Source: a virus. Taken from it: DNA of 64,000 bases. Numbering within the stretch: the stretch's first letter is position 1; each line of letters opens with the position of its first letter. The notes under the pieces are model-generated. The model saw only the letters and a list, made by a program, of their open reading frames with translations, did no database searches and had not been told where the DNA came from. A program made the translations under genes and the position numbers. The stretch lies in IMG/VR virus record IMGVR_UViG_3300020045_007300, positions 1 to 64,000 of that record. The stretch is one strand, 5' to 3'. This document shows positions 10,084-57,986 of the stretch, piece after piece.

Positions 10084-10585
10084 TGTGTTTATTCCAATCT
10101 GGGTAAATTGCTGCACTACGCGGCGCAATAACTAACTGTTGTGTATTGCGTGGCTTAGCGCGGGCTGTTGGCAGTGATAACGCTTTATGGCGTTTATCTG
10201 CGGCGATTTGCACTGGTGTTTTCATTTAAATTGACTCGCTACTTGCCCGCTTAAAATTGCAACTAAAAAACACAATTGCACTATATCTATATTTGCACCA
10301 ATAATAATAAAACAAACCGCTGAAATTACGCTTATTAGCGTACAAATATATAAAATATCTTTCATTTGTGTGTCTCACGTTTATAAAAAGGTTGTACTGA
10401 TTCAATTGCGCATAAGTGCTAATTTAAAACCGACTCCAAAGCCTTGCGATTAAAAATACTCGTTGTTATTTTGTTACAGATTGTATTTTCGCTTTTACGC
10501 TTCATATTATACTCTTGTGATTTTTAAAATTTACCGTTTCGGTGACTGAAATAATATCACGATGGTTTTTAATGTCAATTTATTT

Positions 10586-10603
10586 GTCATACATTTGTAT
10601 GAC
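10586..10603. promoter_or_regulatory. Palindromic operator between divergent promoters
   Basis: GTCATACA-TT-TGTATGAC is a perfect inverted repeat next to a minus-strand TTGACA and upstream of 10643. Confidence 0.55.
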
Positions 10604-10642
10604 GTGATATGATAAATTAATATTAACAAAACAGGAATTATA

Positions 10643-10819
10643 ATGGCAACACAGGTACGACACAAAAAACCATTGCGCAACAAGATAACCATCAGGCTTT
10701 CAGATGAACAGGTAGTGCAATTTAATGACTATGGCAAGTCTTTATACATTAGAGCATTGATTGATGCTGATATTGCGAAAGAGACGCGTAGAGTGAAAAT
10801 CAAGGAGGTTAAGAAGTGA
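10643..10819 (+). CDS. Ribbon-helix-helix-like small DNA-binding protein (58 aa, not in ORF track)
   Basis: KITIRLSDEQVVQF..GKSLYIRALIDADI; AGGA RBS. Confidence 0.55.
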   Translation: MATQVRHKKPLRNKITIRLSDEQVVQFNDYGKSLYIRALIDADIAKETRRVKIKEVKK

Positions 10820-11105
10820 AAAAATACTATGCACTGCAATCTAAACGGCGGTGGAATATATTTTTTAAACGCGAAAATAAGTTTAAAATACGGGGATTTA
10901 AACTTAAATATTATTTAGCATTTAAACATGACCACAGGTGGATGAAATGAAAAAACTACTTACTTAAATTTTTATATTTACACTTGCTATCCTTTTATTT
11001 TGTTTGCTCATGCCAATACATTAAAGGCATGAGCAAACAAAGGCGACATAATTACTGCTAATTTTTTAGTTGATAGTCCAATTACAACTGAATCAATATT
11101 ATTGG

Positions 11106-21308: not shown

Positions 21309-21482
21309 ATGACTAGGCAAGATGCGGCAAAATTAAAATTGAGACGGTACAGCACTGGTAAGCCATGCAGGTACGGTCATAAATCCGACAGATTTACTCT
21401 TGACGGTTCGTGCGTTGAGTGCAGAAGATTAACATCGGAAAAACAGCGGTTGTTTTATAAAGACGCTCTTGCTGGAGTTTAA
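21309..21482 (+). CDS. Small Zn-binding protein (57 aa, not in ORF track)
   Basis: YSTGKPCRYGH..R..CVEC motif; AGGA RBS. Confidence 0.65.
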   Translation: MTRQDAAKLKLRRYSTGKPCRYGHKSDRFTLDGSCVECRRLTSEKQRLFYKDALAGV

Positions 21483-21483
21483 A

Positions 21484-22494
21484 ATGAGTTTTCAATCAAC
21501 AAGCCATCAACTAAGTGTTGACGTTGCTGTTAAGTACGGCATCGAAGAAGCCCTTATTATCAGCAATTTTCAATTCTGGATTAACAAGAATTATAGCGAC
21601 GGTATCAATAAACATGATGACAGAACGTGGACGTACAACACGACTGAATCATTAGCAAAACTGTTTCCTTACATGACTACAAGAGCCGTTCGTTATGCGC
21701 TTGATGGACTGGTAAAAAAAGGTGTTCTAATTAAAGGAAATTACAACAAGGCGGGGTATGATAGAACCGCTTGGTATGCTTTTTTTGATGAAAAAACGTG
21801 GCTATACACCGTAGCGTCTGATTTGACAAAAACGGCAAATGGATTTGACAAAAACGTCAATTCCCATTTGACAAAAACGGCAAATGGATTTGACAAAAAC
21901 GTCCAACCTATACCAGATAATAAACCAGATAGAAAACAACAGATAGAAAACACAAATAAAGAGATAAGCGAAAACGCAAAAAGCGCGTTTGTCGCACCCG
22001 AACTTGAAAAACCAAAAGTAAAAGCTGAAAAACCAAAGCCGTACTACGAAACTGTAGAACTGCCCTTGTTTATTGACCGTCAATTATTTTTAAACTGGCA
22101 CGAAATGAGAATAGTTAAGAACGGTAATGGAAAATCAAAGCTAACTGAGAATGCGGTAAATCTGCAAATAAAAAGGCTTTCTGCACTTGAGCAAGATGGA
22201 TACCCAGCAAACCAATGTCTATTAATTTTGAGTGAAACAGGCTGGTTAGGTGTTACCCCAGAGGGATGTATTAAGCAAATCAACGAGTCAAGAAATCGTC
22301 AGGCACAAAAAAACCCCAACAGTGCTACCAACATCAGTCAGGGCTTACAATATCAAGCTAACAAATCAGGTGTAAATTATGGCACAAAAAAACCACCTCA
22401 GCACGAATTTTATGCACTTGATCGCAATGGCGACTCAAATGCTATCGATTCAACAGCTATTCCCGTTGATGTTAAACGTATTGGAGCATTGTAA
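21484..22494 (+). CDS. Replication initiator (lambda O-like, winged helix)
   Basis: AVKYGIEEALII..WTYNT..NYNKAGYDRTAWY N-terminus; internal iterons. Confidence 0.85.
   Translation: MSFQSTSHQLSVDVAVKYGIEEALIISNFQFWINKNYSDGINKHDDRTWTYNTTESLAKLFPYMTTRAVRYALDGLVKKGVLIKGNYNKAGYDRTAWYAFFDEKTWLYTVASDLTKTANGFDKNVNSHLTKTANGFDKNVQPIPDNKPDRKQQIENTNKEISENAKSAFVAPELEKPKVKAEKPKPYYETVELPLFIDRQLFLNWHEMRIVKNGNGKSKLTENAVNLQIKRLSALEQDGYPANQCLLILSETGWLGVTPEGCIKQINESRNRQAQKNPNSATNISQGLQYQANKSGVNYGTKKPPQHEFYALDRNGDSNAIDSTAIPVDVKRIGAL
21821..21901 (+). repeat. Four iterons ATTTGACAAAAACG (putative replication origin)
   Basis: Exact copies start at 21821, 21843, 21866 and 21888 within the initiator gene, followed by an A-rich tract. 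Confidence 0.85.
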
Positions 22495-52730: not shown

Positions 52731-54065
52731 AGCTCCGAGATACCCCTTCCTTTAGGTGGGGGAGGAAAGGAGTGCTTTTGATTTTCGCTGCACATAGTTA
52801 ATTCCTAAAATATCTGTTGTGTTATCACATTTTTTAAATTAAAATGTGAGTTATGAAAAATAGAGCTTACAAATACCGCTTTTACCCAACGCCCGAACAA
52901 GAAACCTTGCTTGCTCAGACGTTTGGCTGTGTGCGTAAGGTCTACAACACCGTTTTGCGTTGGCGTACAGATATGTATTACCAAAGCAAGGAAAAAATAG
53001 GGTATATTCAAGCCAGTGCTAAATTGACTGAGCTTAAAAAACTTCCTGAACTCTCTTTCCTGAATGACGTTTCTTGTGTCCCATTGCAACAATGCTTGAG
53101 GCATCAACAAACCGCGTTTAAAAACTTCTTTGAAGGTCGCGCTAACTATCCGACTTTCAAAAAGAAAAATAGAAAGCAATCCGCTGAATTTACCAAAAGC
53201 GCATTTAAGCACATTGACGGTAAACTTTATATTGCCAAGTGCAAAGAACCGCTTAACATTCACTGGACAAAAAAGCGTGAAAGTTTGCCTTGCGAACCCA
53301 GTACGATAACTATTTCCAAAGACTGTGCAGGACGCTATTTTGTTTCGTGCCTGTGCGAGTTTGAAAACCAAATCCTGCCAAAAACTGATAAAACCATCGG
53401 CATTGACGTAGGAATAAAGCATTTGTTTGTGACTAGCAACGGTCTCAAAATCGACAATCCCCGCCATACTGCTAACTTCGCGGTTCGATTGGCTAAAGCG
53501 CAACGCAGTCTGAGTAAGAAAAAACTCGGCTCTGCGAATCGCGCTAAAGCTAAATTGAGCGTTGCGCGACTTCATGCAAAAATCTCTGATTGCCGATTGG
53601 ACAACTTACACAAGTTGACCCGTGAACTGATTAACGATAACCAAGTGGTTTGTGTTGAATCGTTGCGCGTAAAAAACATGATTAAAAACCCTAAGTTGAG
53701 CAAACATATTGCGGATGCAAGCTGGGGTAAGTTTGTCCAGCAATTGGAATACAAAGCCGATTGGGCAGGTCGAACACTGGCAAAAATAGACCAGTTTTTT
53801 CCTAGCTCAAAACGCTGCTCTTGTTGTGGGTATACCTTGCCCCGCTTATCTTTAAGCGTCCGCAACTGGGCGTGTCCAGAATGCTCAACAGAACACGACC
53901 GCGATATTAACGCGGCTATAAACATCAAAACCGCAGGGCTTGCGGGGTTAGCCTTTGGAGAGACTGTAAGTCTTGTGTAGCTAGTCTGCATAAGCTGTTC
54001 TCGTTGAATTAGGAAGTCTTAGTAGTGATGCTAAGAATCCCCTACTCTTTAGGGGGGTATGTCAA
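52731..54065 (+). mobile_element. tnpB-only IS200/IS605-family element (IS1341-like)
   Basis: Left-end hairpin CCCCTTCCTTTAGGTGGGGG; right end GAATCCCC..TTTAGGGGG..GTCAA ending in TCAA; no tnpA. The left boundary is approximate. Confidence 0.85.
52853..53980 (+). CDS. tnpB: RNA-guided endonuclease TnpB
   Basis: AYKYRFYPT HTH; RuvC GIDVG, VESL and DRDINAA; zinc finger CSCC/CPEC. Confidence 0.96.
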   Translation: MKNRAYKYRFYPTPEQETLLAQTFGCVRKVYNTVLRWRTDMYYQSKEKIGYIQASAKLTELKKLPELSFLNDVSCVPLQQCLRHQQTAFKNFFEGRANYPTFKKKNRKQSAEFTKSAFKHIDGKLYIAKCKEPLNIHWTKKRESLPCEPSTITISKDCAGRYFVSCLCEFENQILPKTDKTIGIDVGIKHLFVTSNGLKIDNPRHTANFAVRLAKAQRSLSKKKLGSANRAKAKLSVARLHAKISDCRLDNLHKLTRELINDNQVVCVESLRVKNMIKNPKLSKHIADASWGKFVQQLEYKADWAGRTLAKIDQFFPSSKRCSCCGYTLPRLSLSVRNWACPECSTEHDRDINAAINIKTAGLAGLAFGETVSLV

Positions 54066-54073
54066 ATTAAATC

Positions 54074-54330
54074 TTGACAATAGTTATTTGGTGGCATAAT
54101 AACAGTGGGCTTCAAAACTCAAATACCAAGCGTTACCCGCACACGAAAGTTACGCGGATATTTCACCTTTCTGTTTTCGCAAACCTATCCTTGTGGTAGA
54201 CTTGCACTGCGATTGGGAGTGTCACGAATATATTGAATAAGTGCGCCACGCTTGGTAGTGGTTTTGAAACTCCTAATTGTACCCTTCGGGGCGTTTCAGT
54301 TCTTAGAATCACCAAGGATTCATCATGTCA
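54074..54330 (+). ncRNA. C4/ash-like antisense immunity element (P1 C4 / P4 CI type), downstream gene apparently lost
   Basis: TTGACA..CATAAT promoter. TTCAAAAC and ACCAAGCG are complemented by CGCTTGGT and GTTTTGAA (about 54250-54268). A second ACCAAG overlaps the RBS of a 10-codon ORF. Confidence 0.6.
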
Positions 54331-54380
54331 CAAGTAAATGTTGTGGATATGTGCTGAATGTAAAACAACTTTAAGTTAAA

Positions 54381-54597: not shown

Positions 54598-54828
54598 ATG
54601 AACGATTTGCTGTATGAAAAAGCAATGCAAGGAATGATACTACGGTCTTTCACCACTAAAGAAATAGTTGATTTTATGCGTAGCAAAGGATTTTACGCTG
54701 ACATTGATAAAAAATGCGGGTTTGGAAGGATTTTTATAACATTTCACCATGAAGATGCCTTGATAAAAGATGTTGTACTTACTGTGGATTGGTATCGTGG
54801 AGGTATGATGTTGAGTCGCTTAAATTAA
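54598..54828 (+). CDS. Hypothetical protein
   Basis: MNDLLYEK start with AGGA RBS. Confidence 0.5.
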   Translation: MNDLLYEKAMQGMILRSFTTKEIVDFMRSKGFYADIDKKCGFGRIFITFHHEDALIKDVVLTVDWYRGGMMLSRLN

Positions 54829-54855
54829 ATAATTCTTGAGCTTTACTAGAAATTC

Positions 54856-55056
54856 TGTATAATTGTTCATAGGGTTTTCAGTATTTGTCTTGGGAAAGGC
54901 GTAAATACTGAAAACCCCGCAATAAAACGAATGCTTTGCAGCCTTTCCCATCTGGTAAAGCATTCGGAACAATAAAACCGTTTTGTGACACCTCTAGCAA
55001 AACGGATAACCTTTAAGAACCCGCGTTTGCTATTTTAGTAAACGCGGGTTTTTTTT
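54856..55056 (+). promoter_or_regulatory. Promoter, kissing-loop hairpin pair, third hairpin and strong terminator
   Basis: TATAAT at 54858; loops TGGGAAAGGC and GCCTTTCCCA; terminator AACCCGCGTTT..AAACGCGGGTTTTTTTT. Confidence 0.7.
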
Positions 55057-55069
55057 AATGTCTAAAATT

Positions 55070-55510
55070 TGCCACCTAAGACGTGGTAATCATAAAACCC
55101 CAAAAATGTACGAGACACACAGTGTAAGCCTAGACATGGGGCAGATTCTCAGAGTGCCATGCAACGCTAAATTGGATTAGCGACAAGACGGATGAAGACA
55201 TGGAAAAGCCTATGTGTGGCGGCAATACACAGAACATCAAGACTAATCGGGGAAGTATGAAATAGCCAACCCAGAGGGGTAACCACCCTCACACACGACA
55301 TAATAGTGAACTGCCATAGGAGTATGGCACATAGAGTTATCGAGCTGAACTCACGCACTGCATTTGCGAAATACAGCTAGTCGGTTAATAGGTTTAGTTT
55401 GATTAGTCCATGTGAGTTGAATGGGTTATGTATTCTCTTGTCACTGTGTAACCATGCAGTAGTTTGTACAAGAGTTCACATACGGCTTAATTGATTACTA
55501 TTGTCTAAAT
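55070..55510 (+). ncRNA. Putative large structured ncRNA, class not recognised
   Basis: No sense-strand ORF, and many local and long-range complementary segments (see findings). Confidence 0.55.
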
Positions 55511-55526
55511 TTAAAGGTGGGTTAAA

Positions 55527-55772
55527 ATGGAAAGAAGTTTAACAAGAATATCAAAACCTTTTGGAAAGGTAATTTTGGGTATTGATATGCACGATTTTTT
55601 AGAAGTAGCCGCTATTTACGAGATAATAAAAGTAGGCGATGAATTAGTTCTAACTAAAATTGGCAGTACATCAATTCATGAACCTAAGCCAATTGGCTCA
55701 TTACATGGATATTCTATTCAGGAATTGGCTTTAGATGGCCGATACTTATTTACTGATGATGAATTAAAATGA
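55527..55772 (+). CDS. Hypothetical protein
   Basis: ORF with RBS. Confidence 0.55.
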   Translation: MERSLTRISKPFGKVILGIDMHDFLEVAAIYEIIKVGDELVLTKIGSTSIHEPKPIGSLHGYSIQELALDGRYLFTDDELK

Positions 55773-55966
55773 CCATACAAAATGAATTTATCGTTGCTGA
55801 ATTGGATTTCACTCATGTTTTACGCAACCAATGCGTTCAAGAGCAAGGTATTATCACTTGCATACAAACTGGCAATAAAGGCTATTTTTGGTTAGAAGCG
55901 GGTAAATTTCCTTCTCGCCAAGACCTAGCGATTGTAAGCAATAAAAGAACTATTAAATTATCATGA
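55769..55966 (+). CDS. Hypothetical protein
   Basis: Translationally coupled ORF. Confidence 0.5.
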   Translation: MTIQNEFIVAELDFTHVLRNQCVQEQGIITCIQTGNKGYFWLEAGKFPSRQDLAIVSNKRTIKLS

Positions 55967-57317: not shown

Positions 57318-57986
57318 ATGACAACTGAAATTCAAAAGAAAATCACCGCATACAGAGTAGTTGATAAAAACGCAGAAGAACTGCCTGTTATTGCCGCAAA
57401 TGAACTGCCTGAAATGATGCACGAAGGCTTATCACGCCCTGAAATACTCAAGGGTTCATCATACAAGATTAAAACGCCGCAGTCAGAACACGCACTGTAT
57501 GTCACTATCAATGATATGGTGTTAAACGAAGGTACGGATAATGAAGAATTGCACCCTTATGAGATTTTCGTGAACTCAAAAAACATGGAAAACTTTCAGT
57601 GGATAGTGGCATTAACACGGGTCACATCGGCTGTGTTTCGTAAAGGTGGCGATGTTGGCTTTTTGGTCGATGAATTAAAAGCGGTATTCGATCCACAAGG
57701 CGGCTACTGGAAGAAAGGCGGTGTGTTTATGCCTTCTTTAGTAGCAGAGATAGGCTGCACCATTGAAACGCATTTAAAGTCCACTGGTCGCATTAAAGTA
57801 GTGGTTGATGCTCATCAACAAGCGTTTATTTCAGCCAAGCGCAAAGAGTTTAATGAACGCGAAAGTGAGGAGTCTACTGGGTTTCCTGCTAATGCGACAA
57901 TGTGTAAGTCATGTTCAACAAAAGCGGTTATTTTAATGGATGGATGTGAAGTTTGCTTGTCGTGCGGCTCGTCTAAATGCAATTAG
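57318..57986 (+). CDS. nrdJb: NrdJb-like (TSCPD domain + zinc ribbon) subunit of split class II ribonucleotide reductase
   Basis: RPEILKGSSYKIKTP..ALYVTIND, EIFVNSKNM, ALTRVTSAVFRKGGD, DGCEVCLSCGSSKC. Confidence 0.88.
   Translation: MTTEIQKKITAYRVVDKNAEELPVIAANELPEMMHEGLSRPEILKGSSYKIKTPQSEHALYVTINDMVLNEGTDNEELHPYEIFVNSKNMENFQWIVALTRVTSAVFRKGGDVGFLVDELKAVFDPQGGYWKKGGVFMPSLVAEIGCTIETHLKSTGRIKVVVDAHQQAFISAKRKEFNERESEESTGFPANATMCKSCSTKAVILMDGCEVCLSCGSSKCN

Follow-up and report, generated by a model that had tools for sequence, protein, structure and literature searches.

A sharply bounded, modular non-coding unit behind a kissing-loop attenuator in a freshwater phage, and its predicted long-range pairing with the next gene's translation start

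RNA structures sequester the ribosome-binding sites of homing-endonuclease genes: I-TevI, I-TevII, I-TevIII and segB of T4 and mobE of Aeh1 (PMC2988022). The hairpin in these leaders is local, spanning tens of nucleotides. A different arrangement is found in P4 CI RNA and P1/P7 c4 RNA, where a promoter is followed by hairpins that pair their loops through copy-specific letters and then by a terminator; in kissing-loop leader units the gene comes directly after. The hok-type toxin mRNAs join their 5' and 3' ends in an inhibitory fold-back, and type I toxins have long, inert 5' untranslated regions. Then there are the several-hundred-nucleotide non-coding RNAs GOLLD, ROOL, OLE, raiA and HEARO, associated with phages or mobile elements and restricted to particular lineages, and the MPMEs, ultra-small mobile elements of mycobacteriophages, about 440 bp in length.

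The locus described here comes from an uncultured freshwater phage without close relatives in culture; no catalogued phage has a capsid protein more than 37% identical to its own. The window covers the first 64 kb of an IMG/VR virus record of 94,892 bp (completeness estimate 89%). Within it, a stretch of about 440 nt stands between the terminator of a kissing-loop leader and the start of an 81-aa open reading frame (ORF); with its leader it is called copy A, and a paralogue in the same record copy B (Table 1). As in the T4 and Aeh1 endonuclease leaders, a selfish or accessory gene (HNH, in the paralogue) lies behind a terminator, and prediction places its ribosome-binding region in a duplex with upstream sequence. 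In contrast to those leaders, this duplex would form across about 440 nt, with a conserved core lying between its strands, and no internal late promoter, such as the T4 endonuclease genes have, is established here. The upstream unit is laid out like P4 CI RNA and P1/P7 c4 RNA, but both copies add the extension of about 440 nt before the gene. The predicted closure resembles that of hok-type mRNAs in keeping the start region inaccessible until processing, but it joins the leader's 5' end to the start region, and neither an antisense partner nor a toxin gene has been identified here. With GOLLD, ROOL, OLE, raiA and HEARO the stretch shares its size, its lack of coding capacity, its phage association and its restriction to a lineage; unlike them, it has neither a covariance-model match nor an IscB-type protein. 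It is like the MPMEs in size, in phage host and in being a discrete, insert-like unit, but it is single-copy here and lacks terminal inverted repeats at its very ends.

Table 1. Coordinates of features at the locus and of its paralogue (positions of the virus record)
Feature	Position	Strand	Remarks
TnpB gene	52853-53980		upstream of the element; then two small ORFs
Promoter P1 (sigma-70 type)	54836-54863	+	TTGAGC-16-TATAAT; 10/12 consensus matches
Leader hairpin 1	54872-54917	+	loop pairs with loop of hairpin 2
Leader hairpin 2	54928-54966	+	loop pairs with loop of hairpin 1
Leader hairpin 3	about 54970-55010	+	also given as about 54975-55008; additional to the two hairpins first described
Intrinsic terminator	55015-55057	+	hairpin and T tract (also given as 55015-55053); 18-pair stem, 8 T
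M1, predicted clamp 5' strand	55058-55101	+	opens with left direct-repeat copy
M1, anti-Shine-Dalgarno CCACCU	55072-55077	+
M1, AGACG	55079-55083	+
M1, UGGUAAUCA	55084-55092	+
M2, 63-nt cassette	55102-55164	+	two unrelated alleles; not notably structured
M3, hairpin CGCUAA/UUAGCG and linker	55165-55207	+
M4, conserved core, 294 nt	55208-55501	+	ends with predicted clamp 3' strand (55492-55500)
Right direct-repeat copy	55499-55512	+
Shine-Dalgarno AAGGUGGG	55514-55521	+
AUG of 81-aa ORF	55527	+
Copy B	73,138-73,760	-	same layout as copy A

Copy A sits in an island of small accessory genes with virion genes on both sides. Between the end of tnpB (53980) and the element there are two ORFs and one promoter. 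The ORFs of 81, 65 and 188 aa downstream match no family, and further on the C-terminal fragment of a B12-type ribonucleotide reductase stands alone. The match of the 222-aa ORF (57318-57986) is confined to the C-terminal TSCPD region of class II ribonucleotide reductase; since no N-terminal part is seen nearby, this would be a split or remnant gene. Directly behind TnpB (OrfB_IS605 / Cas12f-like TNB) is an ORF-free gap of 389 nt (53992-54380), the expected site of the TnpB omega-RNA and right end; no TnpA is seen nearby. The element itself was considered as an IS200/IS605 end or TnpB omega-RNA and rejected, as it is neither contiguous with tnpB nor similar to its flanks, with no such similarity elsewhere in the genome. 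The genome had been portrayed as otherwise packed with genes, which overstates the case: 20 gaps of at least 200 nt contain no ORF of at least 60 aa. Long stretches without such an ORF occur elsewhere in the record at 91447-93629 (2.2 kb) and 10129-11105 (1.0 kb).

The upstream unit is as the preliminary description had it, with a promoter, two hairpins with 10-nt complementary loops and a strong terminator. The loops of hairpins 1 and 2 are perfect complements over 10 nt (54891-54900 / 54941-54950), and the only change listed for a relative in the stem of hairpin 2, 54934 C>T, gives a G.U pair. The sequence CAATAAAAC stands before both hairpin 2 and hairpin 3, its copies 50 nt apart (54920-54978), which suggests that a tandem duplication gave rise to the two hairpins. 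The kissing hairpin of the paralogue (its hairpin 2) has its sequence homologue in hairpin 3 of copy A, not in hairpin 2, so in copy A the hairpin seems to have been duplicated and the kissing loop shifted. Directly before 55051 and 55059, the terminator hairpins of relatives are different ones with a similar loop. Another leader in the same genome has its start codon about 17 nt past its terminator. The 5' arm and loop of the terminator of copy A (55025-55035) are complementary at 91% over 11 nt to the start of M4 (55260-55270), a putative pairing that could rival the terminator hairpin only once it has been read through.

The stretch past the terminator is non-coding, on the same strand as the flanking genes. 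The claim that it holds no sense-strand ORF is borne out by 7-16 stops in each of the six frames of 55058-55526. All three stop codons are present, so no single stop reassignment opens it, and recoding of stop codons is ruled out, every frame being closed by all three. Among 5.8 billion proteins, none is related to the longest frame on the minus strand (55170-55376).

Is it then, as was first thought, a single RNA of about 430 nt, densely paired and pseudoknotted? The complementary pairs on which that picture was built are each present once, at the coordinates given for them, and both local hairpins are found as listed; the pair AAGCCTATGTG / CACATACGGCTT is correctly located but imperfect, needing a one-base bulge. 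Exact 7-nt inverted complements number 16, against 6.4 +/- 3.3 in dinucleotide shuffles (p ~0.012), and those of 8 or 9 nt show no excess over such shuffles. The minimum free energy (MFE) of the whole element has a z of -2.14 on the plus strand, a fold matched by 3 of 100 shuffles, and of -0.96 on the minus strand; z is -1.52 for the best-conserved part, 55208-55501, where the fold is no better than 15 of 200 shuffles, and about +0.4 to +1.1 for the 5' 70-125 nt (mononucleotide shuffles). The signal of dense pairing is marginal, only modestly above chance. A folding energy that barely beats shuffles, a make-up of exchangeable modules and a paralogue that has only the first ~110 nt in common (its z is +0.92) all speak against the dense RNA, and the elaborate internal fold is not supported. 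What stands of the conditionally expressed large structured RNA proposed earlier is a discrete, unusually conserved non-coding unit; the dense fold does not. The claim that the ends pair holds in silico, and the predicted pairing is more extensive than was claimed, as it includes the Shine-Dalgarno sequence.

That the stretch is not tmRNA, RNase P, GOLLD or ROOL agrees with the absence of any Rfam 15 match at gathering thresholds across the whole window; over the element, the best sub-threshold match (E up to 10) has E above 1, the level of chance. The Rfam library, which includes the C4 antisense RNA family, has no match to the element, and on the paralogue it gives chance-level matches only, with no RF02033. 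ARAGORN finds neither tRNA nor tmRNA. HEARO or an IscB omega-RNA is rejected in view of the missing RF02033 match, the HNH-only protein of copy B and the lack of a nuclease gene behind copy A. A blastn search with the element against catalogued phages and plasmids gives no match, and exact-motif scans of IMG/VR, JGI metagenomes and GTDB genomes give nothing, or chance matches inside unrelated genes. Searches of IMG/VR and GTDB genomes anchored on the flanking proteins of 76, 81, 350 and 590 aa find no such locus, though the protein collection does contain relatives of the 590-aa protein.

Relatives of the stretch itself come from contigs aligned to it, taken from three DNA runs and a single RNA run. 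By word matching, 4-18% of the words sampled from 54600-55800 occur in each of 20 runs from 17 studies, nearly all of them on freshwater, drinking water or wastewater; statements on habitat rest on the three aligned runs, and the small k-mer shares of other runs are not used. The contig matches begin at 55051, 55059 or 55079 and end sharply at 55501, past which the contigs run into unrelated sequence. Within one sample, 55208-55501 is ~98% identical, the leader ~92% and the 81-aa gene 84%. Judged by these sequences, the ~440-base stretch is a real, sharply bounded unit, better conserved than the neighbouring genes. Recombination has left at least five breakpoints in 450 nt, and the mosaic of alleles, terminators and breakpoints in the contigs resolves the element into four modules, M1 to M4.

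In M1 the sole listed change of relatives is 55098 C>A. M2 is replaced in some relatives by an unalignable segment of 62 rather than 63 nt, and both alleles are present within one drinking-water sample. The window's allele also occurs in one 151-nt contig from the RNA library of a marine metatranscriptome run; this contig spans 55090-55207 and diverges beyond, and it is too little to claim transcription. A common fold of the two alleles was sought and none found, and inspection of the alignments rules out that M2 is an inverted segment. The motif TAAGCCT-N3-CATGGGGCAGATT-N-TCAG, with 24 fixed bases in 28 columns, is identical in the paralogue. Being the same in both copies of this genome and swapped in relatives, M2 has the appearance of a site that some phage-specific factor recognises. 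Its motif can also be read as a micro-ORF, MGQI(L/I)R..C, at 55135-55179 and in the paralogue (14 and 21 codons, without a Shine-Dalgarno sequence), which is probably fortuitous because relatives swap the whole cassette.

The substitutions of relatives in M3 (55172 and 55173) sit in the loop of its hairpin. M4 is ~98% identical in contigs from three independent metagenomes, of freshwater and drinking water; across 295 nt, one relative's contig shows 5 substitutions and a single 3-nt insertion. M4, like M3-M4 as a whole, is single-copy in this genome. Of four listed M4 substitutions, 55343 A>G keeps its MFE pair as G.U, 55458 A>G weakens to G.U a pair of probability 0.6, and those at 55393 and 55440 break MFE pairs. 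An imperfect direct repeat of 14 nt, 12 of them identical, lies exactly at both boundaries of the element (TAATGTCTAAAATT at 55056 and TATTGTCTAAATTT at 55499). The paralogue has a comparable boundary repeat, and the chance probability is ~0.03-0.08 per copy, so that each is only weakly significant alone.

The layout of copy B is a promoter (TTGAAA-16-TATAAT), a kissing hairpin pair, a terminator and then about 450 ORF-free nt. Its loops are perfect complements over 9 nt, in letters that differ from those of copy A. Homology between the copies is confined to 54959-55170 (nhmmer E 2e-8), which takes in one leader hairpin, the terminator and ~110 nt at the start of the element; the genome holds two copies, no more. 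The 3' ends or interiors (~350 nt) of the two have no significant similarity, and the MFE of copy B is no better than that of shuffles. Behind copy B lie a gene for a 233-aa HNH endonuclease and one for a ProQ/FinO-domain protein (71958-73137, minus strand). Besides its HNH domain, the 233-aa protein has a weak, sub-threshold match to DUF5710 at its N-terminus; compared with IscB it matches in the HNH domain only, at 27.7 bits against a cut-off of 175. A phage ProQ/FinO protein encoded beside terminator-ended leader RNAs is a candidate partner for them. In the leader of copy B, the 3' arm of hairpin 2 and the 5' half of the terminator are complementary at 90% over 10 nt (L003 1610-1619 / 1645-1654), a possible antiterminator alternative.

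What the two copies have in common beyond their homologous part is a predicted pairing. In each, prediction pairs the ~35 nt that follow the terminator with the translation start of the next gene, ~440 nt downstream. In copy A about 20 pairs would form (55072-77:55515-20, which takes in the Shine-Dalgarno sequence, 55079-83:55502-06 and 55084-92:55492-55500), with probabilities mostly of 0.87-0.99, lower at two G.U options at 55083 and at the terminal pair. The duplex energy, -24.4 kcal/mol, compares with -13.5 +/- 3.6 in the background (P 0.005 for random genome windows; p < 0.001 against shuffles). In copy B the homologous position of M1 has a perfect 10-nt complement in +8..+17 of the HNH ORF (P ~0.003), extending to about 17 pairs over codons 3-9, with probabilities mostly of 0.83-1.0 (0.54-0.66 at two central U-A pairs, which have alternative registers); the duplex energy is unexceptional (P 0.06). 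The predicted clamp thus covers the Shine-Dalgarno sequence in copy A and codons 3-9 instead in copy B. In a relative with the same M1 and a different right flank, the duplex still reaches -20.2 kcal/mol (30 letters of flank). The two copies use different letters at homologous positions of M1, in a sample of two paralogues and one relative's flank. A Shine-Dalgarno or start region held in a stable upstream duplex is what marks a leader that sequesters its ribosome-binding site, and in silico such a duplex is found here.

I propose, tentatively and at somewhat less than even confidence, that the element is a modular long 5' leader with a kissing-loop attenuator before it and a clamp of its 5' end to the translation start. 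On this reading 55058-55526 would be the leader of an accessory-gene cassette, and probably not a single giant folded RNA. A host-type promoter would start transcription of a ~190-nt leader with kissing loops, and most transcripts would stop at the strong terminator. Molecules that read through would carry M1, the first ~35 nt past the terminator, and M1 would pair with the initiation region of the first gene, closing the leader into a loop and hiding the landing site of the ribosome. With terminator and clamp in series, the downstream genes would be gated twice. The clamp might be opened by nuclease cleavage of the duplex, by a shorter transcript, or by a protein such as the phage's ProQ/FinO-domain protein. 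Computation shows the parts and their homology, where the modules begin and end, how well they are conserved, and a predicted pairing that is rare among controls; the production of the RNA, the formation of the clamp in the cell, the block to translation and the trigger that opens it I infer. Counted against the proposal are the strong terminator standing before the element and the two of four listed M4 substitutions that break MFE pairs. A clamp needs no 400 nt, so the 98% identity kept in M4 calls for something more than a clamp alone, and so do the two alleles of M2.

The same stem between M1 and the start could equally serve as a processing stem that frees an interior RNA. The interior (M2-M4 or M3-M4) would then be a stand-alone non-coding RNA, its flanks pairing like the RNase III stems at rRNAs, and cleavage would free an RNA of ~400 nt and the start of the downstream gene together. 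I consider this unlikely but give it real weight, for M4 has remained ~98% identical while the leader and the next gene diverged to ~92% and 84%, parts of the stretch are present in the runs of 17 studies, its GC (0.45-0.48) is higher than that of its surroundings (0.32-0.36 downstream), its end pairing persists beside different flanks, an RNA-binding ProQ/FinO protein is encoded behind the paralogue, and Rfam has no match. The comparison of M4 with shuffles (15 of 200) tells against it, as do the unrelated interior of the paralogue, z +0.92, and the fact that no promoter or terminator of its own was found. A bolder form, which I hold doubtful, is that large phage non-coding RNAs include an uncatalogued class, common across freshwater phages, whose core is M3-M4 (~340 nt), freed from a conditionally read-through leader by cleavage of the flank stem, and furnished with an exchangeable 63-nt specificity cassette matching a phage-encoded factor. 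It is improbable, to my mind, that the stretch is instead a small non-autonomous mobile or recombined DNA insert, lodged between the attenuator's terminator and the gene start and nearly identical among relatives by recent spread. In favour of such an insert are the 12/14 direct repeats exactly at both ends (55056 and 55499), the boundary repeat of the paralogue, inverted segments near both ends, contig matches that end at 55501 with unrelated sequence beyond, and another leader with its gene directly after the terminator. It fits less well with boundary repeats of weak individual significance (p 0.03-0.08), a single genomic copy of M3-M4, no linked transposase and nothing resembling the sequence on either side of the nearby TnpB gene; moreover, the right inverted segment of copy B lies inside the HNH coding sequence, which better fits an RNA role, and the left flank of relatives resembles a diverged form of the same leader and terminator, not unrelated sequence.

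One might also see here a largely functionless mosaic spacer, left by phage recombination or by the decay of small genes, with pairings due to chance in A+T-rich sequence. The thermodynamic signals are weak, at least five recombination breakpoints fall within 450 nt, and the genome has many other ORF-poor gaps, but neutral DNA should diverge faster than the adjacent gene and this stretch has diverged more slowly (98% identity against 84%), neither a frame nor a protein relative is found, and the clamp in two copies has a naive product of P of ~1e-5 to 3e-4 (for tests chosen after seeing the data); a mere spacer is quite improbable. Very unlikely is that M2 and the start of M3 form an internal factor-dependent promoter (TTCTCA 55146-51, 16 nt, TAAATT 55168-73), whose transcripts would lack M1 and so be translatable. 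The homology of the copies does end at the putative -10, where the paralogue has TTATCA-16-CATAAT, the motif upstream is asymmetric and identical in both, and the late promoters of T4 endonuclease genes are a precedent (PMC2988022). Against this, copy A matches the consensus at 8 of 12 positions, promoter-like matches are no commoner than in shuffles, and relatives change TAAATT to TAAACG (55172-73), losing the key final T and keeping the hairpin stem. Hardly credible at all is an ORF-less group I intron or a replication origin. GACUA at 55241 with UAGUC at 55378/55404, CCCC at 55098 with GGGG at 55249 and an A-rich joiner resemble P7, P3 and J3/4 of a group I intron. The intron is rejected nonetheless: RF00028 finds nothing at the locus with E up to 10, there is no convincing P1 helix with a U.G pair at candidate 5' splice sites (at best 3-4 exon pairs), and the element lies between a terminator and a ribosome-binding site, not inside a gene. 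The RNA-primed origin that had been offered as an option is likewise unlikely, as the stretch has no iterons, only two-copy short repeat matches, a GC above its surroundings, and an O-like initiator gene 33 kb away (21469-22494).

New here are the element's occurrence in relatives with a sharp right end, the alleles of M2, the second copy in the genome and the predicted clamp on the start region. If the clamp is true, phages would gate accessory or selfish genes at two levels, with an attenuator and then a pairing across ~440 nt, and the short hairpin controls of T4 endonuclease genes would gain a long-range version. The pattern of M4 together with a two-allele M2 would point to a functional RNA of unknown class or to an actively spreading element, and this may matter more.
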